NCBI GenBank assembly: GCA_044892505.1
Contig: CM097884.1
Coordinates: 18,972,001-19,032,133, forward strand
Direction of reading: 5' to 3'
DNA length: 60,133 bases
DNA from: Schmidtea nova
Lineage: Eukaryota
Below are positions 188 through 32,194 of this stretch, piece after piece. Numbering within the stretch: position 1 is the stretch's first letter; the number at the start of each line of letters is the position of its first letter. The notes beneath the pieces are model-generated. The model made no database searches, had not been told where the DNA came from, and saw nothing but the letters and a program-made list of their open reading frames with translations. Both the position numbers and the translations under genes were made by a program.

Positions 188-247
188 TCATGCGAAATAA
201 TCCCGTGCCGTCGGGTCATAAAAATCGTACGGATCATCTGAGGTACC

Positions 248-288
<41 letters not shown>

Positions 289-3200
289 GAAGCTCTTGAT
301 TGCCATCCCGATCACCTACAAATATAGTGGTGTCACCCCCCATATAGTGGCCATACGCCAAACTTTTATTTTTTTCCACCCAGTTCCTCTTATCGTCCCT
401 ACAAGATAAAGCCCTCTTATTACTTTTAATACTAAAGAGCTGATGGTTTTTGCTCGTAATTCGGAACTGGGGGACATTATATATTTTGTCATTTAAAAAG
501 CAGTCAAGGTAAGACTGGTGTGTGAGACCTGCATCTTTCAAACAGATCCCCTTCGCTTTCATGCAGGCCTCGTCTCCCATCAGGCTATAACACTTAGGTC
601 TTAAGAAAACCCACTCATCATACAGTAGACCCTTATTCTCATCCTTAAATTTACCAATCACAGAATCAAGGGTCCTACTATACAATGTATGATGAGTGTC
701 GTAATTAGAGGTATCCAAAAGCCTATCGTCAATCATTGCGGTCAAAAGAGTATTTAAAGGCAGATTTTTGATTTCCAAGAAGAAGGAATCAGTATCCCCA
801 GCAACGATGTTAATTTCGCAGTTGAAGTCGTTACGATATTTTTGTAACTCTTCATACTGCAGCTGGTACATACGAAGTTTGGATAAATCCAGTACGGTTT
901 GTCCAATGTAGCTGGGTCTATCCAAACATACTGATTCCTTCTGAAGCAATACGGAGATGAGGTCATTGTCGATTTTGGTAGTTTTTTTGGAATTAGCTTT
1001 TGACGTGTAAGTCAGCAGTTTTTGTGCCGAGTTACACAGTCTTAAATTAATTCTTTTTTTTAAATTCTCTACGGTTTTGCCGTAGAGACTATTATTTAAT
1101 AATTTATAAAAGTTCTTATCGAGCTTATTTGTTGATGCAGCTCGTAAGTCGGTGTTTATTTTTATATAATTAAAAAAGATTTTATTTTGTGTAAATTTAA
1201 TAGCGCGATGTATGTGCGTTACCTTCACACCAATTTTAATAAATAGTTGCAGAAGCCGCCAATGAAGAACATAATTCTTCTTTGGAAGATGCGTTAGCAA
1301 CAGCTTCTCAACCTTGGATCCCGGTGCACACATCTTTTCAGCGGCAACTGGAAGATCATCCAGTTTGTCGTGAATCGATGCCGGAATTTCCAAATCCACT
1401 TCTATGGTGTAACCATAATGAAGTGTATCGAGATTTTCCGATGTGCACTCACAAACGATGTTATTTAATAATTGGTCATCAGTGACCCACTCAAAATTAC
1501 CACAAGGCAGGGGTTGGCTTAAGGCCCACCCATATAAATTATTAATATCAATATATAGTAATGCGGTATCCGGGCTCGTCTTGACATAATGTTTATTGAC
1601 AAACGTTAGTCCGCCGCGAATACCGCCCTCGAAAAAGTTATACATCTCCATATCGGTGAGGAGCTCGATAGGAGAGTCAAGAGTTAATAAAGCGGAACTC
1701 CACGACATGCCGGGAATTCCGAGAAAATTTAAAGGCTCAAGCCTGTTATGATTTATTGATTTTAATCGAAATTGCTGAAAATAGTCAGCTAACAAAAACA
1801 CATCCAATTTTAAATAAACCATCATGTAATCGTACAGTGATGTACATGAGGTTTCTTGCCAGATTTTATGGGCAGCAGCATACTCGACAGCAGTTATATC
1901 TTTCCATTTGGGGGGTAAACACAAGGTAGATTTTAAAACCTCTAAAGAAGTGGCCGCGTCGTAAGGAAAAATGCCCTTGGCAGTGACTATAGTACCGCGA
2001 AATTCAGAGTTTGTTAAAGGTAAGCTAGTAAGTGTTTTTACTGCATTATTTAGAGACTCACTTACAAACTGATAAGAGTCAATAAATTTTACGGTCAGGC
2101 TATCGATGTACGCGAAAAGACTTAAAAACTTTTCGCTGGTCAAGGGTATACAACTAATATTCCAACTGTTGTATTTGGAAAGACCATATTTTAAAATATG
2201 GTGCAAATCGTAACCCTTCAAGTTATGAAAAATTACGGGCAAAGAGTGGCGTATTTGCCGGGACTTGTTACACTCTGAGCAGGCTGCTCCAATATAAAGA
2301 CCTGTGAAATGGTCGTGATCCCTAACAGGTGCCACTAAAAGTTTTTTGCATAAATAGTAATTAGTGCTATTATCAAATTGTCGCTGTTGGGTCGCAGTAA
2401 TAGTCATACGTTTTTGATAATTTTTATAATAATAAGGTGTTACTATATACCGACTGATTGACTCAATTTCTCTTAAGAATTGATCAACACAGTCTAGCCC
2501 TACAAAAGATTTGTATATTCTCACCCCAGTAAAGTTGTTAATAAGAAGGAGACCTGCAGCAATAGGAAGATGTTTTTGGTGGTGAACAATATCTTTAGGT
2601 AATATTGCCTCGAAATCCGCATATATTACAAAAGGAGGAGTTACTGTTTTTTTCCAATCAGTAAACTCCAAAAATTTATTTTTTGGTAAGGTGTACAGTG
2701 TGGTACCCAACTGATTTTTGTTACAAAGACCCTTATGACGATTAAAGGCTTCGTCGTTCCTAAACCCATTCAAGCAACGAGGGCACCATTGACTGCAAAT
2801 CCTAACTGGGGTGATTGTGCTGTTTCGGCAATTCAAAAAACGATTCAGGTCGGTAATCGCAAGATAATGAAAATTATCTTTTTTCTCCAAGAGAAGCAAA
2901 TTTATGGGAATTGCCCCGACTACTTTACTGCGATATACTATGTCTATAAAAGGGTGTTTAAGTACGACATTATCATCATTATCGCTATCACTTATATCAA
3001 TTTGGGCCTTTTCATCATATGTAAGGACATTAATACTATAGCCACTGTTTTGTCTCTCAAATTTTTTTATGTTAACTAATTTCATGGGCATGTCGTTGGG
3101 GTCAAAAACAATTTGGGAAAGATCATAAGAAGTAGTCCTATGCCTGTATTGGCGTTCAATACTATTATATTTAACTACTGCTAAAAAGCTATATAAAAAG

Positions 3201-4384
3201 CAATAGGTGTCGTTATTTTGGACATTAACTAAACAACTTAAATTTTTTAAAGTATTCGGAGTCTCGATATAACTGCTGCCGCTCAATCGACTAATTTCAG
3301 AAAATTTAGTCACTAAAAAACTAATATATTCTATTTTGGAGATTGTCCAATTACTCCCCTTTTCGTTAATCTGGACAATCTTCTCATTTAAATTAGTGAC
3401 ACCTTCCTCAATAAAGGTATCACTCCACTCTCTAGCAGAATTTGAGATGACGAAAGATTGTAATTGATCATCTTTCTCAAATTCTACCTTGAGACAAAAT
3501 TGAATTTTTACTGATTTTAAATTAATTATATATGATTTTAGTTTTTCTAATAATATATCCGGCACAGAGACCGTTTTTAATAATAAATTAGAAACATCCA
3601 TTTTTATAATAAAATGGGTATCGTTCAAGTCGGAAGTAACTTCAACAATACCCATTCCAATTTGATTATTATTATTATTTAAAATATTAACATAATCGTC
3701 AAATTCATCATCATTGACGATTATGTCATCGGCGGATATAATACTGATATTAGTACTTTTATTATAAATAAGATCATCCTCATCANNNNNNNNNNNNNNN
3801 NNNNNNNNNNNNNNNNNNNNNNNNNNNNNNNNNNNNNNNNNNNNNNNNNNNNNNNNNNNNNNNNNNNNNNNNNNNNNNNNNNNNNNNNNNNNNNNNNNNN
3901 NNNNNNNNNNNNNNNNNNNNCTGATGTCGATTATTATAATTTTTTTAGGAACTGAATCCGTTAATGTAGTATTTTTTCTTTTATTTATATTAGATGTATT
4001 TATTTTATTTAGATTATTAATTTGATTTTGATTATTAGTATTTTGTAAATTATTTGTGTTAATATTATTTGTATTTGGATTTTGTAAATTATTTGTATTT
4101 GTATTATTTTGTAAAATATTTCTATTATTTGTATTTGGATTTTGTAAATTATTTGTATTTGTATTTGGATTTTGTAAATTATTTGTATTATTATTAAGAT
4201 TGTTATTAGTAATATAATTTTTATATAAAGAATTAAAAAGAGATTTTTTAGATGGTTGATATTGGGAAAGGTGTAACCTATGAAAGATATAAAATTCCCT
4301 ATAAGATGTCGTCTCAATAATTTTACATTTAGGGCATAGGAGGTGGGTGACACCATTATATTTATATGAATAATACTTTTCCAT
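188..4384 (-). CDS. Protein-primed family B DNA polymerase (pPolB) with EndoVII-like insert; spans an N-gap
   Basis: ExoI YADFEA, ExoII HNLKGYD, ExoIII YLKLDV, PolA YIDINNLYG, PolB KLLNNSLYGK, PolC GDTDS; RDHDH...CSECN insert; Asn-rich N-terminus, polyQ C-terminus. Confidence 0.97.
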
Positions 4385-5279: not shown

Positions 5280-5686
5280 TCATATAATTACATTATCATC
5301 ATATAAAATACTAATATAAAAATTACATTTTTTAGAGTTTTTAAAACTCTGTCCATTAATATAGTTCGGGACATCAGTATAGTTCGGAACATCAATAATC
5401 GGGACATCAATAATCGGTACATCATCATCAATAAGAGAGCCATCTATATCGACGTTTTGGAAATTATTGCCTAAAAGTTTAATAATAAACAAAATAAAAT
5501 AGTATAAATTTTTACCAATTAAGTTATTTTTATTTCTGAGTCCGTTTGTCAAAGATCCTGACATATTATTAGCTAAATTAACACCTAGAAATAACATAAT
5601 ATAAATATAATAAAATAAAAATTAATAATTTTACTTTTTAGACCTCCGGCGATCCTTGTTGGTAAATTTATATTTAAATTTTGCAT
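5280..5686 (-). CDS. Spliced accessory ORF (MQNLNINLPTRIAGGLKSVNL...), exons 5686-5635, 5584-5516, 5470-5280; 3' end uncertain
   Basis: Two GT-AG introns (5634-5585, 50 nt; 5515-5471, 45 nt) join an ATG exon in frame; DVP repeats; CCAAT/TATA-like motifs upstream. Confidence 0.5.
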
Positions 5687-6064
5687 TATTTCTTCTTTAA
5701 AATAATTTGAAATTCGATTTAAAATTTGAAAGTAAAAAGTGACGAAATAATGCAAGTATATACTATATAAAGGTGAATTTTATTAACCGGCCAATCAGAA
5801 TCGAGATAGGATAGGCAAATACATGCACACATACTGCACACATAATGTACCTTTGTTTATGTGTGTTTGACGTCACGATATTGCTTTGTATTGTGACAAA
5901 GACATGACATGTCACGTTTTATCATGTGCTTATCACGCATTGATCACGCACTGGTCATGCCTTTGTGATGAAAATAATAATAAAAATAATTAATAATAAT
6001 AAAAATAATAATTAATAAAAATAATAATAAAAAATAATAATTAATAAAAATAATAATAATACAT

Positions 6065-6466
6065 TTATTGTTTTAAATAATCAACAACAGCAGACAAGCA
6101 CCCTTTATAGGCACACATACAATGATCTTTATAGGGACATGAAATGTTTTCAGGAACATATTCAACTTCTTTAAAATTATATTTAATTAATCTTAATTTG
6201 GGGAAATACTTCTTCAAAACATACATCTTTTCATTATCTGTTACATAGAAAATAGCTCCTTTATCGGTAATATCATCCATTATACATTTTGGGCAAAAAT
6301 AATCTTGTCCTTCAAACGATTCTATACGATCAGGCCATAAAGATAAATCACTGTATATATAATACTGAGGTGTGAAAATATTATTGACATTCATAATACA
6401 TAATTCCTTAATTGTTGTTCCACCCATTTCATTATATCCATAAAAATCGATAAAATAACAAGACAT
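6065..6466 (-). CDS. Polinton accessory protein, DnaQ/DEDD-exonuclease-like (probably inactive) with C-terminal Cys/His cluster
   Basis: IDFYGY...IKEL N-terminal pattern lacking the second acidic residue; CPYKDHCMCA tail. Confidence 0.45.
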   Translation of the reverse strand: MSCYFIDFYGYNEMGGTTIKELCIMNVNNIFTPQYYIYSDLSLWPDRIESFEGQDYFCPKCIMDDITDKGAIFYVTDNEKMYVLKKYFPKLRLIKYNFKEVEYVPENISCPYKDHCMCAYKGCLSAVVDYLKQ

Positions 6467-6498
6467 TTTTTCAAATAAAGTTTATTAAAATAAATTGT

Positions 6499-6876
6499 TT
6501 ATAACATTGATTTCAACCATGCAAGGCAATGTTCACCACAAGTGATTGTTAAAGGATGCTGATACCGAATTCTATTATACACAATAGGTTTACCAATAGT
6601 TTGTAGTTTTCGAACAAGTAAATTCGGATAATAATATCCAAAGGGATCAAATACATGTATTCGATCTGGTTTCACATAAACTGCAATCCAATGTTCACCG
6701 CCCAATGTAGATGTCTGAGTATTTACAATGATGGCTTGATTCATTTTCAAATAAGGTATTTTATCGAGAGGGAATACTCCAATAAATTGATTTCCCAATA
6801 GTTTTTTACCTTGTTGTAATACCTGAAAAGAACTATTTAAAAATAAATAACTAATCAATTAAAAATCTTACTCCAT
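6499..6876 (-). CDS. Adenain-like cysteine protease, spliced (exon 6876-6872, intron 6871-6833, exon 6832-6499; 112 aa)
   Basis: GEHW, FDPFG, YQH...TCGEHC catalytic motifs; splicing yields the start MDSFQV. Confidence 0.92.
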
Positions 6877-6955
6877 AATAAGAATAATAAAAATAATAAC
6901 TTTGATCATTTATACTGTTTGAGCTCTGTTCAAACTAATAATGTTTAAGCTTTGC

Positions 6956-8176
6956 TTAAACCAGTATTGTTCTATTGGCAGTAATTTGAACTTCATTTTC
7001 AAAAACTCCATAAATAACTACATGAACCGGTTCATCAATAGGTTTGGCAAACTTTATATCGAGTCGTAAATTTCCGTTTTGAGGGATTTGGCTTTGATTC
7101 AAATCAAAGTCGGGAGCGAGCACAAATGTAAAGAATGGATAACTAGATTTAAATTCATCCAGACTTATACCACAATTCAAGTTTTTATCCAAATATCCTA
7201 GATTTCGGACAAGACTTTGCATATATGATGCACTAAAATTATCATTTTCAAAATCTTGAGTATAAGTTTCTCGAAAATCAGTATTTTTCGATAACGATAA
7301 TGAAGTCACATTGAAATGTTTGAATGTAGATGCAGATTCAGCATATGATCCATTATATTGATTTTCAGTTTGAAAAGCCACAAGAATGAAATTAGGCATT
7401 CTTCTATCTCCAAATATTTGCTCCTTGTAAAATGACGATGCCCCTTTACCGATTGCAAACGATACGATTTCTTTGGATTTTAATGGATAAATTGCATGTT
7501 TACTATTTAAACCAATTTGATGACCGGCCAATACTGAAGAATCACATCGAACTCTTCTTACCATTAATTTTGCATCAACTATTTGGATTATAGGTTTCCC
7601 AGCTGCAGATTTCAATGATAATGAAGATTCAGATCTCTTCAATCTAATATGTACATTAACTCCGGGAAGTAAGTATTTTGGTTGATCCATAAAATCGAGT
7701 TGTAATGATGAACACATGTTGAAAAGTTTAGATCCCTTGATCCATTTTTTCCGATCGTCAGATGAACCATATCCCATTGGAGTAAGACATGTTTCTTTTG
7801 TATCGCTAGTATAATTTAAAACAGTTTCGATTATGGCCTTGTGTGCATATGTATTGTTTCCACCCTCGATTTTTATATTATTAAATCCAAGAATCGCATC
7901 TTTGAAAAGAGTATGAAATAGGTAATTATTAGGCACTACATCACTCGCATCAACTAATTTATTTTTATCTTTATCTAGAACCTTGACAGTAACGGATAAT
8001 AAAGTATCGTTCAAATCCAAATATTCGGTTGCCGATCCATTAATGTAAAATTCTACATCATTTCTACTATCTGTAATAGAATTCATTGGAAAAACATCTT
8101 CAAACACCCCATATTCAATAACTGCTTGAGGTGATGGTCGATCAAAAAGACATAATTCAGATTTACCGCAAATCAT
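6956..8176 (-). CDS. Major capsid protein (double jelly-roll)
   Basis: 406 aa; SELCLF..P.PQ N-terminus, EFYING...YLDL pattern, C-terminal LRLDIKF; position between protease and core proteins. Confidence 0.88.
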   Translation of the reverse strand: MICGKSELCLFDRPSPQAVIEYGVFEDVFPMNSITDSRNDVEFYINGSATEYLDLNDTLLSVTVKVLDKDKNKLVDASDVVPNNYLFHTLFKDAILGFNNIKIEGGNNTYAHKAIIETVLNYTSDTKETCLTPMGYGSSDDRKKWIKGSKLFNMCSSLQLDFMDQPKYLLPGVNVHIRLKRSESSLSLKSAAGKPIIQIVDAKLMVRRVRCDSSVLAGHQIGLNSKHAIYPLKSKEIVSFAIGKGASSFYKEQIFGDRRMPNFILVAFQTENQYNGSYAESASTFKHFNVTSLSLSKNTDFRETYTQDFENDNFSASYMQSLVRNLGYLDKNLNCGISLDEFKSSYPFFTFVLAPDFDLNQSQIPQNGNLRLDIKFAKPIDEPVHVVIYGVFENEVQITANRTILV

Positions 8177-8538
8177 TCTTCAAATATAGTTCCATGACCT
8201 TTCATTCGTTTGTTTATACGTTTTCTAATCTTTTTACGTCTTGGTCCTACCGGTTCAGGTTGCGGTTCGTTTTTGGAAAACATATTTGAAATTGACGGTA
8301 TCGCCTTGGATACAGCCTCCATAGCATTCGTTTTCAATGTAGGTAAAATTTTCTGATCTTTCATTATAACGTCTTTAGCAGTTTTCATTCCAAAACTGCC
8401 CAGTCGCTTAAGTAGTGGAAGTGCAAATCTTCCAATAGTTTTCAACCAACCTGATCCATACTGTTTACCTATAAAATACGGTAATTCGCCACCAGTTTGG
8501 CTATTACTGTACAATGAAATTATATCGGGATTACTCAT
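8173..8538 (-). CDS. Small basic core/membrane-lytic-like protein (adenovirus pVI-like)
   Basis: QTGG and QYGSG motifs, amphipathic WLKTIGRFALPLLKRLG, basic tail ending MKGHG. Confidence 0.6.
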   Translation of the reverse strand: MSNPDIISLYSNSQTGGELPYFIGKQYGSGWLKTIGRFALPLLKRLGSFGMKTAKDVIMKDQKILPTLKTNAMEAVSKAIPSISNMFSKNEPQPEPVGPRRKKIRKRINKRMKGHGTIFEE

Positions 8539-9556
8539 GATGTTTTCGAAAATGTAGAGTCAAATGAGTTTTTGAATTTTTTGGAAAGTTTATTAAATTA
8601 CCTCTATCATCTCGGATATTTATTTCTATATTGTTTATACAGGATGTTGAAACAGATAAATACATTGGATTTTCAACTTGTATTTGAACAACCTCATCCT
8701 GTTCATATTTTTCAATCCATACAGATTTCAACATGGGAACTAATGAATCACCGACAATTATAGGATTGACTATATTACTGTAAATGAACATTTGCTGATG
8801 AAGTTTAATTATTTTTGGTTTATATATTCCAACAATGAAGCTTCCGTCTTGAGCATATGTAGCTTTCGCTAATCCCAATGTTTTTACAAGGTTATTGTCA
8901 AAAGTTATTTCGCTAACATCTGCATTCAAACTGAATTTGAAGTAACTATCATCTACCAATTCCAGAGATTTAAAAATACTTGCACAATTTAGAATAAAAT
9001 ATGATTGCATTTCATCCAGTTTCGATATGTATAAATTATCGGTAAATGTATGTATAAATACAGAATCAGCCTTGTACTCCATCTTTATTCTAATTTTTTC
9101 CGTTAATGGACCATCTATACCATAATATGGTAACGGTATCTTGTATGTATCTGTAGGACTTACAATACTCTGTTTCGTTAATCCCATTCTTTTTGCCATT
9201 GCCAAAGTATCAAAAGTTATAGTGAAGGGAAAATTATCACAGGTAAAATAAATAGAATGTCTATCGCTACTGATTTGAGCAATATCATCGGCAGGATTAG
9301 ATATATCAACTTCACAAAATTGATTGTTGATAATCAAATTTTTATATTTTGTATGTATAGTTTTCTTTTTGTACCGAATTTCTGATTTACTGTAAAATGG
9401 AAATGGATTATACACAAATGTAAAGTCTAAGAGAGCGACTTCCCAAATTCCGTCCAAATACATTGGATTTTGGAGATTGACCATGAAATTACTGGAAGTA
9501 TTATCTGGATGTATATCTGGACAACTGTTGCTAGGTAGAATCATATAAAAATTCAT
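8531..9556 (-). CDS. Minor capsid protein (penton); likely start at 9556 (MNFY), track start 9583
   Basis: FYMILPSN...NTSSNF...L..P..LDG.WEVAL N-terminus and LTLHFRK C-terminus. Confidence 0.88.
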   Translation of the reverse strand: MNFYMILPSNSCPDIHPDNTSSNFMVNLQNPMYLDGIWEVALLDFTFVYNPFPFYSKSEIRYKKKTIHTKYKNLIINNQFCEVDISNPADDIAQISSDRHSIYFTCDNFPFTITFDTLAMAKRMGLTKQSIVSPTDTYKIPLPYYGIDGPLTEKIRIKMEYKADSVFIHTFTDNLYISKLDEMQSYFILNCASIFKSLELVDDSYFKFSLNADVSEITFDNNLVKTLGLAKATYAQDGSFIVGIYKPKIIKLHQQMFIYSNIVNPIIVGDSLVPMLKSVWIEKYEQDEVVQIQVENPMYLSVSTSCINNIEINIRDDRGNLINFPKNSKTHLTLHFRKHHE

Positions 9557-10600
9557 TTTACTAGGTTTTTTGATGATATCCATGATGGTTCTTTATATCC
9601 GTGCCACTTTACATAGTATTGTTTATCCTTACCCACCATTTTAGATTTCAGGATTTTTTGAATTCTAAATATTGTCGGTGGAGGAATAACTTGTAATTCT
9701 TGTTCGTAGAATTTCCCACTGATTATATTGTTATCAGAGTCACAAATAGTATACATGACAGGATTCTGCACTGTGTTGACTTTCGATATTTGATATACCT
9801 CATCACTCCAATTATTATCAAAATTTTTAATGAATGGCGATGCACTAATCTTGCTAATTCGAACATGATCACCAATTTTATATTTTGGTTTCTTTACTTT
9901 TACTTCACTCACAATATTTTCAGTATCAACTACTTCTGCCGGTTTCCTGCCATTTATACCCCGATGAGCACTATGATTATAACTATGAATCAATTGAGGT
10001 AAAACATTAATCCAGGTTTTATTGCCTTTAAAAACAAAGTATTTTTTCAATCGATCCCGCAAAGTTCGATTAAATCTCTCGACATGAGCGGCTTTGAATT
10101 GCGAGAATACCGAATAATGATTTATTCCCTTGATAACTTCCTTGACTTTACTGTTGTAAAATTCCTTTCCTAAAAAATATTAAAAAATGTATAAATTTAA
10201 ATTAAAATTTACCCAAATCGGTTTGTAAATTAGTTGGCCGATCCTTTTTCATCATTGTCTTGATAGCGATTGCCATGTCATTAGCTGATTTCGATTTTAC
10301 TCCAATTGCTCGAGCAAATCTACTGTAAACATCAATACATGTTAAAATATACTTGTACCCCTTGTTAATAGCGGAATACGGAATCATTTCCATCAAATCC
10401 ATTTGCCACAAATCATTGATTCTATATGTTTTATATGCTCGGGTTGGAAACCGTTTCAACATCGGTTTGTTTAGACTGTATGCAAGTTGCCCCGATAACC
10501 AACTTTGTGTCTGTTGTTTCGACTTCTGTGCTTTTTTCCTTAGCTTTTCGACTCCACCGAAACCGGCGTCGTCTTTTGGGTTCGTCCAGATCTTCTCCAT
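9553..10600 (-). CDS. Retroviral-type (rve) integrase with C-terminal chromodomain, spliced (intron 10212-10170; 334 aa)
   Basis: WQMDL, then QTDLG|KEFYN across the intron, VERFNRTL, YYVKWHGY chromodomain; spliced length 1005 nt, no internal stop. Confidence 0.95.
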
Positions 10601-10655
10601 TACAACAAGAAGATTTAAAGTTTAAATTCAAATTAGGTAATGATTGACCCATTGT

Positions 10656-11201
10656 TTATGACCTTTGTCCCAATAAACCAGCACCTCCCAATAATGATAA
10701 AGCTAGTGGTAATAATGCGGCAATAAATCCTCCTTGTTGTTTATATATTATTTTTCGCATAAGTTTTCGATTTTTTGTTTTTACTAGCGACAACAATGGT
10801 TTCTTATGCTTGTTCAAAACACGTCGATTAGATGGACTGAGATGCATTTTACCTCGTACTACTTTAATTAAAATAGTGAGTAAATCATCGATAACGTAAT
10901 TAGGAAACGATTGAAGAATACCCATTCTTCTAGCGGATGGGGCTTTAAGCAATGCATTAAAAAACGGAAAACTCCGATGATGTACTTGTTTAGCATTTGA
11001 TTTCAAATTAATTGGAATTTGATTTTGTTTGGGAAAATTATCCATAATTAGTTTTTTCGATGGTGTATAACTTGTTTTTGAAACTGATTTTGAAACGGAT
11101 TTCTTTGTCGATTTCTTTCTTCGACCTGCTTTCTTACCTATTTTCATTGATTTTCGAGCTTTTATCAATCGTTCAAACTTTACTCGAGATTTCATTAACA
11201 T
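10656..11201 (-). CDS. Basic core protein with adenovirus pX-like C-terminus
   Basis: K/R-rich; ends QQGGFIAALLPLALSLLGG. Confidence 0.55.
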   Translation of the reverse strand: MLMKSRVKFERLIKARKSMKIGKKAGRRKKSTKKSVSKSVSKTSYTPSKKLIMDNFPKQNQIPINLKSNAKQVHHRSFPFFNALLKAPSARRMGILQSFPNYVIDDLLTILIKVVRGKMHLSPSNRRVLNKHKKPLLSLVKTKNRKLMRKIIYKQQGGFIAALLPLALSLLGGAGLLGQRS

Positions 11202-11221: not shown

Positions 11222-11845
11222 TTAACTTTGTTTATAAACCATGGCTCCTTCCTTGTTAAAAATATCAGTTCTAACCCTTAAATCATCACTGCATTGTTGA
11301 GTAAAATCCAAGAAAATATATCCATGAGGAGATTTTGTAGCATCCTGAAAGGCTTCAATCAAAAAGTTACGATTTGAAGGATAAGCTTGTCTTGCCAGAA
11401 AATCAATAACTGTTGCATCTCTAGGATTTTTAAAAACAACAAGATATTGAACATTTAAATTACGAGTTCGATGACTACCGCCCTGATGAAATAAATTCTG
11501 AGTTATAAAAATAACAGTAACACCTTTATGTCTACTGATTTTCGTAAATAAATTATTAAAATCCTTTTCTTTATTTGCTTCTTGATACAAGTCGTCAATG
11601 ATAATCACATCACCTTGTTTTAATCTAGATGACCAGTTTTTATCGAAACCTTTTATGATTGTCATTTTTATTTTACAAAACTGATCTTGTGTCATTCCAC
11701 TTTCGTCGTCAGCACCCCTATGCCAATAAATATTATTAAATTTCGACTTGAATAATTTCGATTGCAATAATTTACAAACAAATAAAGTTTTTCCACTCCC
11801 GCTAGGACCAACAATTTGAAACACTGCATCATTTCTTAATTCCAT
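11222..11845 (-). CDS. A32-like genome-packaging ATPase
   Basis: Walker A GPSGSGKT, Walker B IIIDDL, SRH..VTVIFITQ, KNPRD. Confidence 0.93.
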   Translation of the reverse strand: MELRNDAVFQIVGPSGSGKTLFVCKLLQSKLFKSKFNNIYWHRGADDESGMTQDQFCKIKMTIIKGFDKNWSSRLKQGDVIIIDDLYQEANKEKDFNNLFTKISRHKGVTVIFITQNLFHQGGSHRTRNLNVQYLVVFKNPRDATVIDFLARQAYPSNRNFLIEAFQDATKSPHGYIFLDFTQQCSDDLRVRTDIFNKEGAMVYKQS

Positions 11846-11938
11846 ATTTAAAAATTATATTTTCTTAATATTATTGTTTATATTTGTTTTAAATACCTGT
11901 TCTCAAAGTAATCATTTCATTTAAAAATATTTTCAGTA

Positions 11939-12406
11939 ATGATTAGAAACATTAATTACAAGGGTAAGACAGATGTATCACACATGAAATTTCCAAATGG
12001 AAAACCCCAGCAAATTGTAGATCGAAGTGGAAAATACCCAATAATATACTTTAAATCAGGAAGATATAGAATAATGGGATGCAGGGAATTTATTAGTGAC
12101 GAACAAGTTGAGTTTTACGATTTAAAGATACAATCGATAACTGTAACTGCAGATTTAGGATTTATTTGTAATTTGAATGAATTATCGAAATTAATACCAT
12201 GTGTTTACGAGCCAGAATTATTTCCAGCTTTGAGATATATCAAATATAATCCCATGTGTGTAAATATATTTGCAAGCGGAAAATTAGTCATATTAGGATT
12301 AAAAAACAAAGACTATAGTACTATAGTTGATGATATTATTTACGATATAAAATCAATTATAGAAGATAAAGCCTTTGTTGATTTCATACTAACATGTGAC
12401 TCATGA
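11939..12406 (+). CDS. TATA-binding-protein-like protein
   Basis: ITVTADLGF..NL, YEPELFPAL and IFASGKLVILG match the TBP second repeat; IYFKSGR resembles a degenerate first repeat. Confidence 0.85.
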   Translation: MIRNINYKGKTDVSHMKFPNGKPQQIVDRSGKYPIIYFKSGRYRIMGCREFISDEQVEFYDLKIQSITVTADLGFICNLNELSKLIPCVYEPELFPALRYIKYNPMCVNIFASGKLVILGLKNKDYSTIVDDIIYDIKSIIEDKAFVDFILTCDS

Positions 12407-13221: not shown

Positions 13222-13747
13222 TTTGATGTGTGTGTGTGTTTAATGTATTTAGTTTTTAGTTTTGTAATTTTAGATTAATAAAAGTTTTTTTTTTTTTTTT
13301 TTTTTATTCATTTTAGTTTTTATTTTTATTTAAATAATAGTAATACTTTTTGATAAAAAAATTTTTTATTAGTAGTTTTTTATTAACTATATAAAATAGT
13401 AATTAGTTTTTATTAAATAATTAGTAAGAAAGTGTTTTATGAAAGATAATATTAATAATAATAATAAAAAATAATAAAAATAATTGTTAAATAAACAAAT
13501 AAGTAAATACATTAGTAGCAGAACATTGCAAACAGAACCCTGGACGTAGAACTTATTCTGTGATTGTTTTTATATGAAAAAGCTTCATAATAAATAATTA
13601 AAACATACATGCATGCATACAACAAAGACATTGCAATACATGTGCATACTGTGTGCAAAACAAATGCATGAATATGATTGGACAAAGACATCCAGTCATC
13701 AGTATAAATACAAAGACATTTTATAAAATATTGTCACTATTTACAAC

Positions 13748-14164
13748 ATGCAATCACGAAAACAAAATCTCGATATATGCGATGAAAAAATATACCAGAC
13801 TGAGGTAAAACCAGTTCAGATGTACTATGACAGCCGACTTTATTTTTTGGTTAATGAAATACCGTATCGATTATCATTTCCGGTAAAATTAACAAAATCT
13901 TTATATGATAGTCTTGCTGTAATTATTGCCAAGGAAGATATTATCGCATTAAATAGATTATTTTCAAAGATGAATGTTAATTTGACATGTAAAGAAACCA
14001 TGTACATCAATAACAGAAAAACTCGGTTTCATGATGCTTTTCAAACTATTGATTTCATGGATCAAGAACACTGGTTCGTTACAGTTATTATTCAAGGGTA
14101 CAAGATTGATAAAAAAGATGTTGTTACTCCGATTTGGAGAGTTGACAATGCAAGATACGCATAA
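13748..14164 (+). CDS. Polinton accessory protein of unknown function
   Basis: 138 aa; clear paralog at 31656-32063 (shared PVQM, FLVNE, FHDAFQ, IQGYKID, PIW). Confidence 0.7.
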   Translation: MQSRKQNLDICDEKIYQTEVKPVQMYYDSRLYFLVNEIPYRLSFPVKLTKSLYDSLAVIIAKEDIIALNRLFSKMNVNLTCKETMYINNRKTRFHDAFQTIDFMDQEHWFVTVIIQGYKIDKKDVVTPIWRVDNARYA

Positions 14165-14228: not shown

Positions 14229-14816
14229 ATGAAATTAATTATAGTTATTTTATTATTATGTGTTGATAATACTGAAGGAGAACAAGCTTTGGAAGATTGT
14301 CAATCATCCCATCCGTTTCGAAAACAAGATAGTACTTGCGCGAGTTATAACGATATATGTCTTTACTCAAACATTGAATGCAATCAAATAAAATTACAAT
14401 GTAATCAATGTCCTTCCAAAAATAATGTGATTAATAAAGATATTGAAAAAATGATTAACAAAATAATGATGAAAATAGTTGAAAGATTAAAATGTATAAA
14501 TCAAACTATTGTTAAAAAAGAATATGAAGTCAGATACCAAAATCAAACAGTGGAAAACGAAAAAACAGCAATTGTTTTACATTATATAAGTTTATTTATA
14601 TTAATAATTATAATGATGTTATCGGCATCCATACGGCTGGAGAAGATTTCAAATATTCCAAAGAATAATATTCCGACAAATACTAGTATTCCGATGAATA
14701 ATATTACAATGAATAATAATAATATTCCTATGAATAATATTCCGAGTAATAATTCAGATGTAAATAATTTTGAAACGAAATTTTGTACACGTACACAACG
14801 ATATATTTATAAATAA
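14229..14816 (+). CDS. Predicted type I membrane protein with Cys-rich ectodomain
   Basis: Signal-like MKLIIVILLLC, Cys-rich segment, TM IVLHYISLFILIIIMMLSA, Asn-rich tail. Confidence 0.55.
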   Translation: MKLIIVILLLCVDNTEGEQALEDCQSSHPFRKQDSTCASYNDICLYSNIECNQIKLQCNQCPSKNNVINKDIEKMINKIMMKIVERLKCINQTIVKKEYEVRYQNQTVENEKTAIVLHYISLFILIIIMMLSASIRLEKISNIPKNNIPTNTSIPMNNITMNNNNIPMNNIPSNNSDVNNFETKFCTRTQRYIYK

Positions 14817-14830
14817 ATTTTGGCTTTTTA

Positions 14831-14995
14831 ATGTCTTTGTTTATGTTGTACATGTGTTGCACGCATGTGTCTTTGTTTAGTTTGCATGTGTATTGCAATG
14901 TCTTTGTTCATGTTGCACGCGTGTTGCAAAGTCCTTGCACGTGTGTTGCAATGTTTTTGTTAACTTGCACGCGTGTTGCAATGTCTTTGTTTAGT
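14831..14995. repeat. Imperfect tandem repeat of ATGTCTTTGTT / GTTGCACGCGTG units
   Basis: Several ATGTCTTTGTT and TTGCA(CGCG)TG copies visible. Confidence 0.7.
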
Positions 14996-15219
14996 TTGAA
15001 AGATAATAATTAAATAAAAAACATTAGTAGCAGAACATTTAGTATCAGAACCCTGGAAGCAGAACATTGCGATCAGAACCCTGGAAGCAGAACCTCTTCT
15101 GTGATGGTTTTGAAGTGCAAAAGCTTCATACTTGACAAATAATAATTAATTAAAAATGCACACATATAAAAATGTCTTTGTTTGCACACCTGTTGTAAAT
15201 ATTTTTGATGACTCTAATT

Positions 15220-15590
15220 TGGTCTTATAAAAATAATTTGTCTTAAAAAAAAAATTTTTGAAAAAAATAATTTGTCTTAAAAAAAAAAAAATTTTTTGAA
15301 AAAAATATTTGGTCTGAAAAAAAAATTATTGAAAAAAAAAATTTGGCGCGAAAAAAAAATTTTGAAAAAAAAATTGGCGCGAAATAAATATTTGAAAAAA
15401 AAAATTTGGCGCGAAAAAAATTTTTGAAAAAAAAATTTGGCGCGAAAAAAAATTTTGAAAAAAAAATTTGGCGCGAAAAAAATTTTTGAAAAAAAAATTT
15501 GGCGCGAAAAAAATTTTTGAAAAAAAAAATTTGGCGCGAAAAAAATTTTTGAAAAAAAAATTTGGCGCGAAAAAAATTTTTGAAAAAAAA
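15220..15590. repeat. Subterminal ~31-bp tandem array with 8 TTGGCGCGAAA (E2F-consensus) cores
   Basis: GGCGCG cores start at 15345, 15376, 15408, 15439, 15470, 15501, 15533, 15564; three degenerate units precede. Confidence 0.9.
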
Positions 15591-15597
15591 AAAATTA

Positions 15598-15771
15598 TGA
15601 CTCATCGATGACTCATCGATGACTCATCAAAAAAAAGTATGACTCATCGATGACTCATCAAAAAAATTTTTTTTTCTACCCCCCCCCGGGGGGAGGGGGG
15701 TCTTTGTTCTTTTTTTCCGCCCACGCATGAGTCATAATGTCTTTGTTCCCGGCTCCACACATCTACCTACT
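15598..15771. promoter_or_regulatory. Right terminal region with TGACTCA (AP-1-consensus) repeats and C/G-run palindrome
   Basis: Five TGACTCA in 15598-15660, TGAGTCA at 15728, C-run/G-run at ~15679-15700. Confidence 0.7.
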
Positions 15772-18700
15772 AGAGAAAGTAACAAGAAACTCACACCACT
15801 CTTCAAAGCAGAAGCACCATACCAAGCTAGACTAGATGCGATACAAGAAAAAGCAAAAGAATTGTTACCGGAATTCGAGAATAGTAAACATGCACTGGAA
15901 ATACTCGGTGCATTAGTTGAAAAAGTACACGCATACGCAAAAGGAACATACAATGGTAACGATATAACGACTATAAAAAAGGAGATGCCAGTAACATTTT
16001 TACTACCAAAGGACGGAATAATGCCCATACATAGAGCTCTACGAAATGGCAAAGATAAAAAAGTAATGGAAATTGCAAGAGTAATGTTAAACTGCGGAAG
16101 CAACATGAATATGGTAGACGAGAAAGGAGATACACTCATGATATTTGCAGCAAGGGCCAAAACGAAAACAAAAGTGCTGGAAGAACTATACAAAGCAGGT
16201 GCAGGACTTACAGGAAAGACAGACAAAGATAATTCAATTCTGGATGTAGCATTACTAACACATAATTGGGAAATGGTCAACTTCATTAAAACAATCTCAA
16301 ATCAGGAAGAAATAGATTACCTAACTGATACGGTCAGGAAACCCAGTGTACTAACAATGATGCATAATGTCGAACTAACAGAAGCAATACTTACGTGGAT
16401 AAATCCGAATACTATCGAACCAGCATTCAGGATTAATGAGTTTACAGAACATAACCAAAATTGGTGCATAAGAAGTGCCTTAATAACGTATAAATGGCCA
16501 GAGATATTGAAGATGTTTATGGAAAGAAAGGATCTAAGGATCACAACCAGCCCGAAGGAAGAAAAGTACACAGGCAAATGGAAAGAATTGATGAAGACAT
16601 ACATCAACAATTGGATCAAGGCCAAAAAGGAAATCTTAGAATATAAATCCACTAACAAAGTAATACCAGAACAGGTAGAAACACAAGAGTTTGAGGCAAG
16701 TAATCTAACGACATTAGCGTATGCGAAACTAATAGAAGAAATCAATGTCGAGGACGACATTTTCGACGAGCCAGGGGGAGATGACAATACAGATAGTGAC
16801 GACGGTAACAACGCAGAAAATTCAAACGATCACGAACCACCCGATAAAGAGGAAAACGAGAGAAAAGACAAGAAACGAGACAAGGAAGAAAAGAAAAGTA
16901 AAGACGAAAAACAAAGAGATGAAGAGGGAGAACAAGGAAAAAACGACCAAGGAGATAAAAATGACACCCAAAGAACAGGTTATAAATCAACCATAAAACC
17001 ATTCTTCAAACCAGAATTACTATTATTAACAGTGATTTTAACGTTAATTAACCCAAGTCAAGGAATGACATGTGAAGAAAGGGCAATAATACAAATAAAA
17101 AACGCGAAAGGAATCGAACGAGTATGTTGGTCAAAAAAGGACAAAATCACGGAACAAAATAGTCCGATGGATTGCAGAATCTCAAAACACGAGCAAGAGA
17201 TCATAGAGATCAATGACCTAGATCTAAATACCTGGTACAAAATATGCACCGTTAGAAAACAAAAGCATCCAAGATCACGCAACACAATCGCATGTGCAAA
17301 ATACCAAACACCTAAAGCAGCCATGACAATACAACAGTCACCCAAAGGAGATTACATCCTCGGAAAATGTGGAAGAACAGAGACACAGGGAACAGAAAAC
17401 AAAAAACCCCAGGCAATAGATAAGCAAGCAACACCAACCCTACGAATTACAATAAAGAGGCCCGAAGCAAGAGTTGCCACAAACGAAACCGAAAGAGTGT
17501 CTTACCAAATGGAAGTATTATGTTTAGCACTCATACTAATAATAATAAAACGATTAGAGGAAGGGATAGAAATCGAAACTATGACAATAACAGAAGTAGA
17601 AGATACACAGAATACTAACATAAAATGTTGGGCGAGGAATAACGAGGAAATCGGCGTAAATGAAATAAGGAAAAGTCGAAAACCAACAACGAATAAAGTA
17701 ATTAAAGTATCCGAAGTAAAAGCAGATAAAACGTACAAACTATGCCTACTAGAAAAAGAGAGAAACAAGAAAGGTACCAAAAAATGTAAAACATTCCAAC
17801 CTGGAGAAGTAATAAAGTTCAGAAGGAGAACGAGGAAGAGAAATAAACAAATCAAGCGGAAAGTAAACATAACATTAGAAATAAAAGAGATAGAACCAAA
17901 TGTGAAAGGAGTATGCTGGAGGAAGTACGAAAAAGAAGTAAATAAAAGAACGACACCACAATGTCGAACAAACACAGGAACAACGACGATTCAAATAAAA
18001 GGTTTAGAAAGTAAACAAACCTACGAAATATGTTTGGTAAAGAAAAATGATCAGATAACGATAAACGACCTAGAATGCGGAATATATACAACTTCATCCG
18101 GAACAAGAACCAAAACGTTAACACGGAAAAATAAAAGGAAACAACAAAACAAAGAAAAACCGAAGTACACCACTACCTTTAAAAACAATAAACAACCAAC
18201 AAACCAAGAAGTTACGACGAAACCCGAGAGAAAAACATCAGCAACTCTAACATTATGGAAAATAGAGAATAAAACATTAGAAATATGTTGGATAATAGTA
18301 CAGAAACATATAAGAAGACAATCAAGAGAATGCAGAAAAACAAATAAAGAAATCAAGATCGAAAAACTACAATTTAATAGCGAGTATGAAGTATGCGCAA
18401 TAGAAATAATGGACGCACTAGGAAACCAACAAGAAAGATTCGAAACCTACTATACACCAGTAAACGCGACATCAAAAGGAATAACAAGGAAACTCGAATT
18501 CAGGGAACTAAGCCAAACGAATGAACAAATGGACGCAGAAAAAATAATAATCGACCCTCAAGCAAAATGGACACCCGAAGAAGTTATCAAAGAAGTCAAA
18601 AGAAAGCAAGAGGAACGAGAACAATTAATGAGAAAACTAAAAGGACAATACGGAATAATGTTCAACCAAAGCAAATCTATACAAACAGACGAGAATTAAC

Positions 18701-18966
18701 AAATCAAAGAATTAATTGGCTTAGGAATATTAACAGCGACCATACCGGTAATAATCGCATTATCAGCTATATGGATACGCAAGATAAGCCCAAGAAAATC
18801 AACAACCCAATGGCTAAATATAGATAATACAAGCCATGGAGTCGAAATACTGGAAGCACGAGAAGAACCAAGATCGACCAGGAATGAGAAAGAAGCAAAA
18901 GGCGGAAAACTGGGAATGAACAACGAAGACAAAGAAATAGAAGAGATTAAAAGCAAAGAGACGTAA
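15727..18966 (+). CDS. Ankyrin repeats + acidic linker + internal signal-like peptide + four FN3-like repeats + TM; in-frame TAA at 18697-18699 precedes the TM
   Basis: About three ANK repeats (GIMPIHRA, GDTLMIFAA, DNSILDVA); CW...C...L.xxYxIC repeats; frame continues as LIGLGILTATIPVIIALSAIWI. Confidence 0.7.
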
Positions 18967-19008
18967 TATGAAAGGCGAACCAGAAGCCTACCGCAGAGTT
19001 CAAAATGG

Positions 19009-20469
19009 TTGGGTCTAACAATAATATTGACATTAATCAATAGGGAAGAAGCAATAAACCCACAGACAGGGATAAAAGTAATAAATGTTCAGGAAGTCGA
19101 GAAAATATGTTGGTATAGAGAAGATGAACCAATTGGAGAAAATAACCCACTAAAATGCATAATCCGAAAATCCGACCAGGATATAGTACGAATAGAAGAA
19201 ATGGATGGAGGGACCATGCATCGGATATGCATAATAGAAAAGGAAAAGAAGTCGGGGCTACCTAAGACAGTCGTATGTCAAAAATATGAAACACCTAGAC
19301 TTGAATGGTATAAAGTAAAACCAACAAAGAAGGAAATTAAAAACACAATAGATCAACCAGCAACTCAGATGAAAAACACAACGGACAAACCAAGAGAGGG
19401 GGAGAGAAGCACAAATAACACGAGAGAAGGAGTATCACCCCAACAAGATTTTGTATGCATAGCGTTAATAATAGCAATGTCCAAACGTATCGATAAAGGA
19501 ATAATAATAGAACAAATGGCTATGACAATAAGGAGAAAAGACCAAAGCAACAACATATGCTGGGGATGGTACAACGAACCTAGGGAATACCAAGTTCAGA
19601 CAAGCGACGAATCACGAACAAACCAGGAAACCGAAATACAAGAAATACAAATGAACGGAGAAGGAAGTATATGTATATGGGAGAAAGGAATCCAAGAAGA
19701 TCAAACCGGAATAGAAAAATGCAAGACATTCCAAAAAGGAGAGATTCTGAAATTCGATAAAAAAGAATTAACCAAAACAGAAAGAACTCTGACATTAACA
19801 GGACTTGATCAGACAGTGAAAGGAATATGTTGGACAAAGCATAACCCAGAAGGAGAAGAAGCCAACCTAACCCACTGTAAAGAAACAGGGAATAAGGAAA
19901 AAGTCGAATTAAAGAAAATGGAAGTAAATAAGACATACGCGATATGTACCTTCACCAGAAAAGGTTCAGAAAAACCAGAATGCGGATTATATCAGATCTC
20001 AGAGAAACTACAACAACAGATCAAACCAGGAAACGTGGAAAACCGAACAAAAGAAAATAACGTCAAACAACTACTAAACCGCCATTGGTCTACCCAAGAA
20101 GTAATGAACAAAATCAAGAGTCAAATACAGAAAGAGAAGAAGCCAGAGGCTCAAACCCAAAATGAGATAAAAGCGAATCAGAAGAAAATCAAAGCAACAA
20201 ACCGTGGAAAAACAGTAATAGGACTAATCAGTATAGGAATATTAATAGCATATGGAATACTGACGACAAGCATAATAGTATATTGGAGATACAGAAAGAG
20301 AAACAAAGCGACAGCCATACAATGGCCAGATATTAAAATTATGAAACAAAGAATAGAGATACCAGAAGAGATACAGAAAGAATTTCAAAGAAGAACGAAA
20401 GGTAAAGAATTCTGGAAACAAATAGAAGATGAAGAACGATACGAAGAAAAGACGATAATGATGGTATAG
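19009..20469 (+). CDS. Membrane protein with three FN3-like repeats and TM; no ATG start, same frame as the upstream ORF
   Basis: Paralogous to the FN3 module upstream (ILTLIN, VCIALII..KR, W.xEV, TM, QWxxI). Confidence 0.7.
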   Translation: MGLTIILTLINREEAINPQTGIKVINVQEVEKICWYREDEPIGENNPLKCIIRKSDQDIVRIEEMDGGTMHRICIIEKEKKSGLPKTVVCQKYETPRLEWYKVKPTKKEIKNTIDQPATQMKNTTDKPREGERSTNNTREGVSPQQDFVCIALIIAMSKRIDKGIIIEQMAMTIRRKDQSNNICWGWYNEPREYQVQTSDESRTNQETEIQEIQMNGEGSICIWEKGIQEDQTGIEKCKTFQKGEILKFDKKELTKTERTLTLTGLDQTVKGICWTKHNPEGEEANLTHCKETGNKEKVELKKMEVNKTYAICTFTRKGSEKPECGLYQISEKLQQQIKPGNVENRTKENNVKQLLNRHWSTQEVMNKIKSQIQKEKKPEAQTQNEIKANQKKIKATNRGKTVIGLISIGILIAYGILTTSIIVYWRYRKRNKATAIQWPDIKIMKQRIEIPEEIQKEFQRRTKGKEFWKQIEDEERYEEKTIMMV

Positions 20470-20594
20470 GGGCGGATTATGACTGTAAATAATAGTGTAA
20501 ATAACAAAGCATTACCGTAATAGTATGGGTATCGATATTATAAAAATTGTAAAAAGATAGAAAAGCAAAGTAAACGATGTATATAATTTAGAAA

Positions 20595-20951
20595 ATGACC
20601 GAACAAGACGAAACAACGGAAATAACTATGGCTATGAGATGGAAGGCACAATGCAATTTATTAGTACGAACAGTCAACTCATTACAGAACCAATTAGCGG
20701 AAAAACAAATGTTACTATCAGAAAGTTATAACAACTGTTTCGAACAATTACACAGAATAGAAGAACAACAAAGAATGATAACCGAACTCACCAGAGAAAA
20801 TCAAACGATAAGCAACATCAATCAAAGACAAGCAATAGAAATAAACCATTTAACACGAGGAGAAAGAGAAGAATCCGAAGAAGGATGGATGAGTTGGGTA
20901 ATAAATAGATTAAACAACGAAGCGGAACCAGATTCAACGAATGAGCCATAG
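20595..20951 (+). CDS. Coiled-coil protein of unknown function
   Basis: 118 aa with heptad pattern; shares the unit A spacer motifs. Confidence 0.6.
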   Translation: MTEQDETTEITMAMRWKAQCNLLVRTVNSLQNQLAEKQMLLSESYNNCFEQLHRIEEQQRMITELTRENQTISNINQRQAIEINHLTRGEREESEEGWMSWVINRLNNEAEPDSTNEP

Positions 20952-21043
20952 ATAAATAAAGCGGAAAATTGTAAATATGTAAAAATAAAAACAAGAAAAA
21001 TCAAAAATAAATGACAAGTCGAATGTATATATTATTGTAGAAA

Positions 21044-22420
21044 ATGGACAGAGAAGAACGAATAATCGAAATTTTGAGACTAGAAAACAAAAAATGGAGC
21101 AAGAGGCTCACATGCGGGAAGTGTAACAATTTATTACGAGAACCTAGACAAACGATATGTGGATGTAGAATATGTACAAAATGTATACAAGAATTAGATG
21201 CAACAGGAATAACAACATGCCCAGAATGTAAAGAAGGAAGAATAGTGTTGGACGAAACCAGAACGGATAAAGCAACCCAGAGAGAAATTATGAGCACCAT
21301 AACGGAGTGCGTAAATACACCTTGTACATGGCAAGGACAAATAAGCAATCTAGAAAATCACATGGAAAATTGCGAAGAGAAAAGAGCCGAATGCGAGAAG
21401 TGTCAACAGATAATAATTCTAAAGAAGAAAGAACAACACAAGGACGAATGTAAAGAAGAAGAAATCGCATGCAAGTATTGTGAAACTCGAGAGACAAGGA
21501 GGAGAATCGAAGAAGAACACTTAAATATAACAGAGGAGAAAGTATGCGGACAATATGTAAGCAAATGTCCAAACAATTGCGAAATAACAGAAGAAATAAA
21601 GTTACATGAACATTGGAAAATATGCACCGAAAGGCCAAGAGAATGTCCATATAACAAGCATGGATGCAAGGAAAAGCGGACGCGAAAAACAATGAAACAA
21701 CACTTGGAAGAAGCAGCATTAATGCATGTGGAGATGACAAACGAGGCGGCAAAAGAAACAGAACAGACAATGCAGAAACTGGAAAAGGAAGTAGAATCAC
21801 ATAAAATAATGATGAGTTTACTACTAGAAACAAGAGAGCAGTTTGAACTAACTCGCAAAAGAATGGAAGAAAAAATAATAGCCATAGAAGAATTGGGAAA
21901 AGGAATGAAAATACAATATAATCAATTAATACGAGAAATTGACGAAAGAAGGGACTTACCAATTGCACCTTACCTATGGAAAATAACAGATTTTAGAGAC
22001 AAACTAGCAGAGGCCCGAAATATGACTAAAACAGCAGTAATAAGCCCACCATTTTATTTATGGAAAAATGGGGTTAAAATAAGATTGAAAGTATACCCAA
22101 ATGGAGACGGAAGAGGACAAGGAACACACGTGTCAATATTTTTCTCGTTATGTAAAGGAGAATACGATGACCTAATAGAATGGCCCTTGAAAGTAGGAGT
22201 CATTATAAGAATCAAAAGTATAGGAAAACCAGTAGAAAAGTTCTTTGAAACAGACAAACATACGAGTACAAGCGAAAAACCAACAACAGAATGCGGACTA
22301 GCAGCAGGAGAACCAATGTTTATAAGGAAAGAAAACCTATGGGAGCGACTGTATGCAGACACGCTATACATAGAGATGGAGAGGCATGAGAAAACAGACA
22401 GAAAAGGATGGTTGGCGTAA
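21044..22420 (+). CDS. Full-length TRAF-family protein (RING, TRAF zinc fingers, coiled coil, MATH)
   Basis: CGKC...CGCRICTKC...CPEC RING; C.N.PCTW and CPYNKHGC zinc fingers; MATH SPPFY...YPNGDGRGQGTHVSIFF...GEYD..IEWP. Confidence 0.95.
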   Translation: MDREERIIEILRLENKKWSKRLTCGKCNNLLREPRQTICGCRICTKCIQELDATGITTCPECKEGRIVLDETRTDKATQREIMSTITECVNTPCTWQGQISNLENHMENCEEKRAECEKCQQIIILKKKEQHKDECKEEEIACKYCETRETRRRIEEEHLNITEEKVCGQYVSKCPNNCEITEEIKLHEHWKICTERPRECPYNKHGCKEKRTRKTMKQHLEEAALMHVEMTNEAAKETEQTMQKLEKEVESHKIMMSLLLETREQFELTRKRMEEKIIAIEELGKGMKIQYNQLIREIDERRDLPIAPYLWKITDFRDKLAEARNMTKTAVISPPFYLWKNGVKIRLKVYPNGDGRGQGTHVSIFFSLCKGEYDDLIEWPLKVGVIIRIKSIGKPVEKFFETDKHTSTSEKPTTECGLAAGEPMFIRKENLWERLYADTLYIEMERHEKTDRKGWLA

Positions 22421-22531
22421 TGAAGAAAGTAACCATGTAAATAAACTGTATAAAACAATATGAAATAACAAATAATCAAAAACAATAAAAATAAAAACTG
22501 ATTAAATATTCTTTTATCTGTAATTATAGAA

Positions 22532-23593: not shown

Positions 23594-23672
23594 ATGAGCG
23601 GAAACCAATTGTAAATAGATGATGTAAAATAAAAAGCGTCAAGCTGTATTGACTCCTATGTAAAGATAGAAA

Positions 23673-32063: not shown

Positions 32064-32194
32064 ATGAAATAACATTTTTGTCATATGTGTATTTATTAAT
32101 AAATGTTGATAAATTCTCACTTGGTGTTTTTGAAAAAATGTTTTGTAAAATTTTATGTTTTGAAAAATCTTTAAGTTTTTATATAATTTTTAGA

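Follow-up and report, generated by a model that had tools for sequence, protein, structure and literature searches.

A Polinton in the genome of Schmidtea nova encodes a reduced TATA-binding protein (mini-TBP) with a rewired DNA face, and a variant TATA box, reading mostly TATAAACA, stands just ahead of the packaging and putative capsid genes. This placement of the box suggests that mini-TBP is likely the element's own late-gene switch. Judging from the sequences, we predict with a probability of roughly 70% that the protein is a specificity factor for late promoters, probably working through host TFIIB. The DNA analysed (the window) is a stretch of 60,133 nucleotides from contig CM097884.1, in which the gene lies as follows:

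11939..12406, plus strand: mini-TBP gene, 155 amino acids, with a reduced repeat 1 (residues 1-48), a linker and a full repeat 2 (62-153)

The original prediction of a TBP-like protein at this place was borne out by profile search and structure model alike. Residues 62-133 match the Pfam TBP family (PF00352; E 1e-13, 51.3 bits against a cut-off of 22.9), and all 35 matches in a PDB sequence search are TBPs (best E 8e-18). An AlphaFold2 model built on a 41-sequence alignment (pLDDT 91.8) produced 44 Foldseek matches at E ≤ 0.001, TBP being every one among the matches listed. Residues 1-143 of the model align with residues 66-240 of yeast TBP (Z 11.5, rmsd 3.2, 143 residues aligned). That the alignment runs along both yeast lobes (139-143 residues, Z 11-12) indicates that both lobes of the saddle are present in the model.

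The second repeat had been described as near-consensus, with segments YEPELFPAL (residues 90-98) and IFASGKLVILG (110-120) and both intercalating phenylalanines, F95 (yeast F190) and F111 (yeast F207). All of these are present and the description holds for the stirrup and glycine motifs, but not for the DNA-facing surface, where five positions of repeat 2 differ from cellular TBP. The first repeat is shortened as proposed, having lost H1, H2 and the first phenylalanine; however, it keeps more than the IYF to which it was thought to be reduced, since the model shows four strands (residues 2-10, 25-28, 35-38 and 42-48), with no helix before residue 79. Two helices remain in place of the canonical four, and the repeat 1 spacers measure 34 and 19 residues, those of two-repeat TBPs 47 and 35. 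The gene is under purifying selection: dN/dS is 0.12-0.23 in seven unsaturated in-genome pairs (three further pairs being saturated) and has a median of 0.17 in 18 metagenome pairs. These ratios rule out a pseudogene or a chance ORF.

The changes on the DNA face were counted in up to 140 family rows, with up to 64 two-repeat TBPs for comparison. Yeast numbering was assigned through an offset on a canonical TBP and checked against positions in excerpts of PMC12529657 and PMC1636458; the DNA-face positions are those of Table 1 in the former excerpt. Among the canonical minor-groove residues (N69, V71, V122, T124, N159, V161, L205, T215), mini-TBP retains N69 alone. Three changes are near-invariant in the family: V122R (122/123), T124M (135/135) and L205N (138/138). 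To these are added V71N (99/111), N159S/T (137/137) and V161T/S (135/137), while T215 has mostly become leucine (86/136). The canonical set has V or I at 122 in 54/64, T124 in 46/64, N159 in 60/64, V161 in 58/64 and L205 in 57/64. Three intercalating phenylalanines are kept, F116 (121/122), F190 (138/138) and F207 (136/138), whereas the region of the fourth, F99, is without a conserved aromatic and differs in register between alignments. N69 and P191 are kept as well, V213 mostly. So are the stirrup acids for TFIIB, E186 (129/138) and E188 (135/138). The EPELF stirrup of mini-TBP itself is intact, E91, E93 and L94 corresponding to yeast E186/E188/L189, which bind TFIIB (excerpt of PMC10005294). 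The family also has new residues at all three sites altered in the yeast altered-specificity mutant TBPm3, namely R for I194 (123/140), C for V203 (123/137) and N for L205. As these sites contact the second base pair (excerpt of PMC1636458), repeat 2 would face the upstream half of the box, which would leave the downstream half to repeat 1.

The mini-TBP gene belongs to a complete, high-copy Polinton of ~17.6 kb with terminal inverted repeats (TIRs) of ~1 kb. Its other features in the window are:

188..4384, minus strand: putative protein-primed PolB, containing a run of N; no Pfam polymerase match
6065..6466, minus strand: conserved gene with a Cys/His cluster; homologue near TBP in 14/60 metagenome loci
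6956..8176, minus strand: putative major capsid protein; Pfam DJR-like, E 0.005, a weak match below the cut-off; conserved in relatives
8531..9583, minus strand: putative minor capsid protein; an ORF labelled by Polinton layout, no Pfam match
10202..10600, minus strand: rve integrase, N-terminal part, frame interrupted in this copy (Pfam rve, E 3e-8)
11222..11845, minus strand: A32-like packaging ATPase (Pfam Pox_A32, E 5e-7)
13748..14164, plus strand: putative single-stranded DNA-binding protein (SSB); Foldseek top match phage Enc34 SSB, weak at E 0.006
14784..15771, no strand: right TIR of ~1 kb, 90% identical over 1045 columns to a partner ~0.8-1.8 kb left of the window

Of the Polinton/Maverick hallmarks, long TIRs, rve integrase and A32-like ATPase were found; the capsid match is weak and PolB is a putative label. 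We take ORF 188..4384 to be protein-primed PolB, ORF 8531..9583 to be the minor capsid gene from the Polinton layout, and the N-terminal motif of ORF 6065-6466 to be DEDD-like. Intact relatives of the integrase are 348-389 aa long. A probable protease gene at ~6480-6875 (minus strand), presumably adenain-like, has an apparent GT-AG intron directly after its start, as judged by eye. As originally described, the mini-TBP gene opens the plus-strand block, divergent from the ATPase, with 93 bp between the two starts. A homologue of the putative SSB accompanies the TBP gene at 18/60 metagenome loci. The ORF list and Pfam scan of the Polinton revealed no RNA polymerase of its own.

Expansion of the Polinton in this genome is very large and young. 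An identical protein was found in 150/150 scored matches (out of 19,111 candidates), DNA identity among 30 copies is 98.5-99.4% and all six other copies compared are colinear; older in-genome subfamilies go down to ~48-69% protein identity. At 25 in-genome loci, five picked by TBP and 20 by ATPase, a TBP homologue was always present (16 intact, nine flagged broken or partial). Each TIR carries seven exact tandem copies of TTTGGCGCGAAA (15342-15572 in the right one). We take these to resemble overlapping E2F sites, and they could link the Polinton to S phase; a search for p53-type sites gave no pair, just three half-sites on their own. Past the TIR, an A-rich block of long intronless ORFs (15727-24233, plus strand) is absent from the Polinton's copies and includes Pfam matches to ankyrin (weak) and to a TRAF-like RING/zinc-finger/MATH protein; possibly, it is another mobile or viral element that received the Polinton insertion. 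Elsewhere in the window, repeats at 30473-38033, 52636-53266 and 59240-59795, among them an inverted pair of 742 nt and ORF fragments resembling RT/GIY-YIG, are presumably Penelope-type elements.

The variant box, (T)ATAAACA, occurs in the window before or within the following genes:

6495..6503, minus strand: TATAAACAA box upstream of ORF 6065-6466, from upstream-region reading
8210..8218, minus strand: TATAAACAA box ahead of the putative major capsid gene, from upstream-region reading
8631..8639, minus strand: TATAAACAA box within the putative minor capsid coding sequence, upstream of ORF 8173-8538 (8/8)
9619..9627, minus strand: GATAAACAA box ahead of the putative minor capsid gene, in the C-terminal region of the integrase (7/7)
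10652..10660, minus strand: CATAAACAA box upstream of the integrase, from upstream-region reading
10737..10745, minus strand: TATAAACAA box within ORF 10656-11201, from sequence scan
11228..11236, minus strand: TATAAACAA box within the final codons of the ATPase (Y-K-Q), ahead of ORF 10656-11201 (25/25 copies)
11874..11882, minus strand: TATAAACAA box ahead of the packaging ATPase, within the 93-bp divergent spacer (23/25 in-genome copies)

In elements with mini-TBP, 48 of 51 regions upstream of late genes (packaging, putative capsid and those further down the late block) have ATAAAC on the sense strand within 120 nt. The regions were drawn from 24 related, not independent, loci after removal of near-duplicates; PZ, integrase and protease, whose starts are uncertain, were left out of the count. 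The antisense strand scores 1/51, random windows 7% and shuffles at most 13/51, and ATAAAC is the top-ranked 6-mer upstream of late genes. Five separate gene positions each bear the box: ATPase (13/13), minor capsid (8/8), ORF 8173 (8/8), major capsid (9/9) and ORF 6065 (10/13), the first four together making 38/38. Before TBP and SSB genes it is found in 7/44 regions, and the putative protease gene has no consistent box. Over the whole window ATAAAC is not enriched (88 against 79 expected), so the signal is positional. The distance from box to ATG is 27-47 nt in 33/48 cases, like that of the canonical TATA of TBP genes. The box is held at the DNA level even within coding sequence: ATPase ends read TAT AAA CA in 13/13, the integrase box is xAT AAA CA in 7/7, where the first residue is D, H, N or Y and the bases are fixed, and the minor capsid box is xxT ATA AAC A in 8/8, against background codon usage of 0.39 for ATA and 0.24 for AAC.

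These findings displace the target sites first put forward, near 5765, 12545 and 13705. The latter are ordinary TATA-like sequences with CCAAT nearby (before the putative SSB gene, canonical TATAAATA at 13703-13710 and CCAAT at 13675-13681) and probably serve host factors as early promoters, and mini-TBP likely targets TATAAACA. As for the TBP genes, a canonical TATA lies no more than 120 nt upstream in 18 of 39, followed in 13/18 by a TCA initiator-like motif 28-30 nt further on. No such TATA is present at this window's copy, and at locus L040, from a relative, the TBP gene comes after a box-bearing gene, so that early timing of TBP is not uniform. The same locus contains a ubiquitin-conjugating enzyme gene (222-719, Pfam E 2e-12) and two tandem minor-capsid-like genes (5616-7687), each preceded by a box.

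Could the box simply be a weak TATA for host TBP, or for some other core factor of the host, mini-TBP being otherwise employed or topping up TBP activity without new specificity? Its spacing is that of a TATA box, and TATAAACA departs only at position 7 from the consensus TATA(T/A)A(A/T)(A/G). Furthermore, PDB 1qn3 is, by its title, a crystal of wild-type TBP on a C(-25) TATA variant, so weak recognition of the box by host TBP is conceivable. This explanation is unlikely all the same. It does not account for the base following TATAAA, which is C in 41/51 late-gene cases versus 1/15 before TBP genes, nor for the invariant changes in the DNA face, nor for the behaviour of a distant Polinton lineage whose TBPs have near-canonical contacts and whose late-block genes use TATAA[AG]. 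That lineage, represented by five contigs of one bacterial assembly bin (two of them ending short of the TBP gene), has full-length two-repeat TBPs, 183-188 residues long (L143: Pfam E 1e-36). The full-length Polinton TBPs are located as follows:

L143, 11565-12122
L160, 2229-2780
L149, 1418-1984
L161, at the contig end

The contrast-lineage proteins keep four phenylalanines, N69 and N159 and are near-canonical at 122/124, with V71S and an altered V213; their gene is head-to-head with a gene of no assigned family. ATAAAC precedes 4/34 of the late-block genes in this lineage and ATATAA 18/34, and the four gene classes that score 38/38 elsewhere have the box in 1/15 (counted by eye). Conversely, locus L078 (25-540) encodes an intermediate form of 171 aa in which the helices are kept, the DNA face is rewired and the box is present. 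Taken together, the scarcity of the box in the contrast lineage and its presence at L078 suggest that the box follows the rewired face, so far on few lineages, the co-variation being between two.

The original prediction had offered two roles, a promoter-specificity factor or a dominant-negative of host TBP. The former is favoured by the rewired, conserved DNA face and the strand-specific box. As a decoy, mini-TBP would occupy host TATA boxes or TFIIB and shut down host transcription, and its retained stirrup acids and missing regulatory helices would suit that role. Yet a decoy needs neither invariant new DNA-face residues nor a co-varying box; here the face is strongly constrained anew rather than decayed, such a box exists, and the genome tolerates very many intact copies, expressed or not. 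We therefore regard this second role as quite improbable. More doubtful still is recognition of the box by a forkhead protein of the host, with no connection between box and TBP gene. ATAAACA does fit the forkhead consensus RYAAAYA, but the usual best site, GTAAACA, is found in none of the 51 late upstream regions, and the box is strand-specific (48 versus 1) and position-biased, as expected of a core element. Least probable of all is a 3'-end signal of the upstream gene, suggested by likeness to AATAAA variants, which are polyadenylation-type signals, and by frequent proximity to where the preceding gene ends. Against it, no same-strand gene lies upstream of the ATPase box (11874-11882), and other boxes lie inside the preceding coding sequence, one ~100 nt before the stop, where cleavage would truncate.

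Homologues of mini-TBP are widespread. Searches at E ≤ 0.001 returned 58 and 1184 proteins (the best 150 of the latter were examined), and 140 of 205 sequences scored fit the family profile better than the canonical one. Of 60 metagenome loci, 22 have a Polinton core gene and 38 some homologue of the element's genes; core genes are present in all six that exceed 5.3 kb. Members of a long kind, with helix-length spacers, to which the L078 protein belongs, make up 15 of 109 full family rows, and R44, M46 and N109 are already present in 15/15. Scans of viral contigs for a TBP-less Polinton found no relative. An own-genome search with a distant ATPase gave back this family again, 20/20 loci having a TBP homologue alongside, and of four loci on genome contigs two have a TBP gene and two are too short or cut to judge. 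A quick tree of 105 rows placed its 35 family rows (30 sampled at random plus five) on one side of a branch with SH-aLRT 98. In the proposed comparison with TBPs, the family is separated from those of the host, TBP and paralogues alike; no donor emerged from this tree, in which giant-virus TBPs were not included. Three full-length Polinton TBPs fall outside the mini family, and the family does not group with four host TBP-family stretches, among rows that contained no identified TRF2. The host genome has a canonical TBP (L110) and several divergent TBP-family stretches (loci L110-L115 and L120), of which L112 and L114 are apparently intronless. Recent capture from this host's TBP is ruled out by the tree and by an identity of ~33%.

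In the proposed mechanism, mini-TBP would be made early, often from a canonical TATA and initiator promoter read by host TBP, and would then bind the TATAAACA box before the packaging and putative capsid genes. The box would be contacted in the minor groove with three phenylalanines, and invariant R44 (yeast V122), on the presumed downstream-facing lobe, would read the non-consensus C at position 7. E91, E93 and L94 would bind host TFIIB, TBP and TFIIB being a textbook pair whose contact needs DNA, and recruitment of TFIIB and RNA polymerase II to the box would bring about the early-to-late switch. In the host genome an unbroken TFIIB core was not found; a long match in the TFIIB search looks, we presume, like Brf1. 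TFIIA, Brf1, TAF1 and Mot1-type control act through repeat-1 helix surfaces; loss of these helices would remove them, leaving a polymerase II-only factor outside TFIID. The reading of C by R44, the binding of TFIIB and the escape from host regulators are all inferred. Were mini-TBP indeed a late factor, it would prefer TATAAACA over TATAAAAG. We are evenly divided on a broader proposition, that a wide Polinton clade runs one-protein orthogonal transcription, in which a TBP of ~150 aa made of saddle and stirrup would use a private TATAAACA code and escape host TBP regulators, while TBPs of other lineages would pair with other boxes, co-evolving as natural altered-specificity pairs that gate the transposon-to-virus switch. 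The pair of factor and box would address the timing of Polinton capsid expression and hence virion formation. If the late-factor reading is correct, mini-TBP would also rank as the smallest TBP-type specificity factor of natural origin met in this analysis, and the family would provide a natural map of saddle residues that change TATA reading.

Mini-TBP belongs to the TBP fold family and departs from canonical TBP in three features. With the cellular proteins (eukaryotic TBP/TRF and archaeal TBP; PF00352), it shares the two-lobed saddle, F116/F190/F207, N69, P191, SGK turns and the EPELF stirrup; unlike them, it lacks F99 and the H1/H2 of repeat 1 and has at least seven DNA-face substitutions. 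As for the TBP homologues in large viruses, invoked at the outset, the model has 18 BFVD viral matches at E ≤ 0.001, several of them named TATA-box binding protein. The Nucleocytoviricota and mirusvirus proteins share the viral TBP fold and are 11-21% identical to mini-TBP, with lengths of 189-547 aa unlike its 155. Many of these viruses have their own RNA polymerase.

Closer in genome type are the MELD viruses with adintovirus-like PolB, for which 'TBP' is a label in the Figure 5 legend of Starrett et al. 2021 (PMC8502044); the likeness, that a genome of Polinton type has a gene like TBP, is at the level of this label. The word 'promoter' does not appear in that paper's main text, nor 'TBP' in the part of its supplement text covered. 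The original claim of novelty is tempered by this published label and by the abundance of the family in unannotated data. Of the reduced form and the box, the literature covered, subscription papers lying outside its scope, gave no description. Yeast TBPm3, changed at the same positions 194, 203 and 205, is a laboratory product with hydrophobic changes that relaxes position 2 (excerpt of PMC1636458), whereas mini-TBP has natural, polar changes, which reach into the other lobe as well.

The nearest functional parallel lies with the herpesvirus TBP mimics KSHV ORF24, EBV BcRF1 and HCMV UL87, which act on TATT late promoters (excerpts of PMC12529657, here and below). They share with mini-TBP a viral TBP fold and polar changes at V122, T124, V161 and L205, and the ORF24 system, like the one proposed here, combines a variant TATA box before late genes with host polymerase II. 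ORF24 is a 752-aa multidomain protein of a six-protein complex that keeps four phenylalanines and lacks the TFIIB-binding acids; mini-TBP, in contrast, has 155 aa, is a TBP homologue at the sequence level and has the stirrup acids. It is not a member of the ORF24/BcRF1/UL87 family and, by analogy, there is a good chance that it works like one. If so, it would parallel the late transcription of herpesviruses by convergence and might, possibly, serve as an orthogonal promoter tool.
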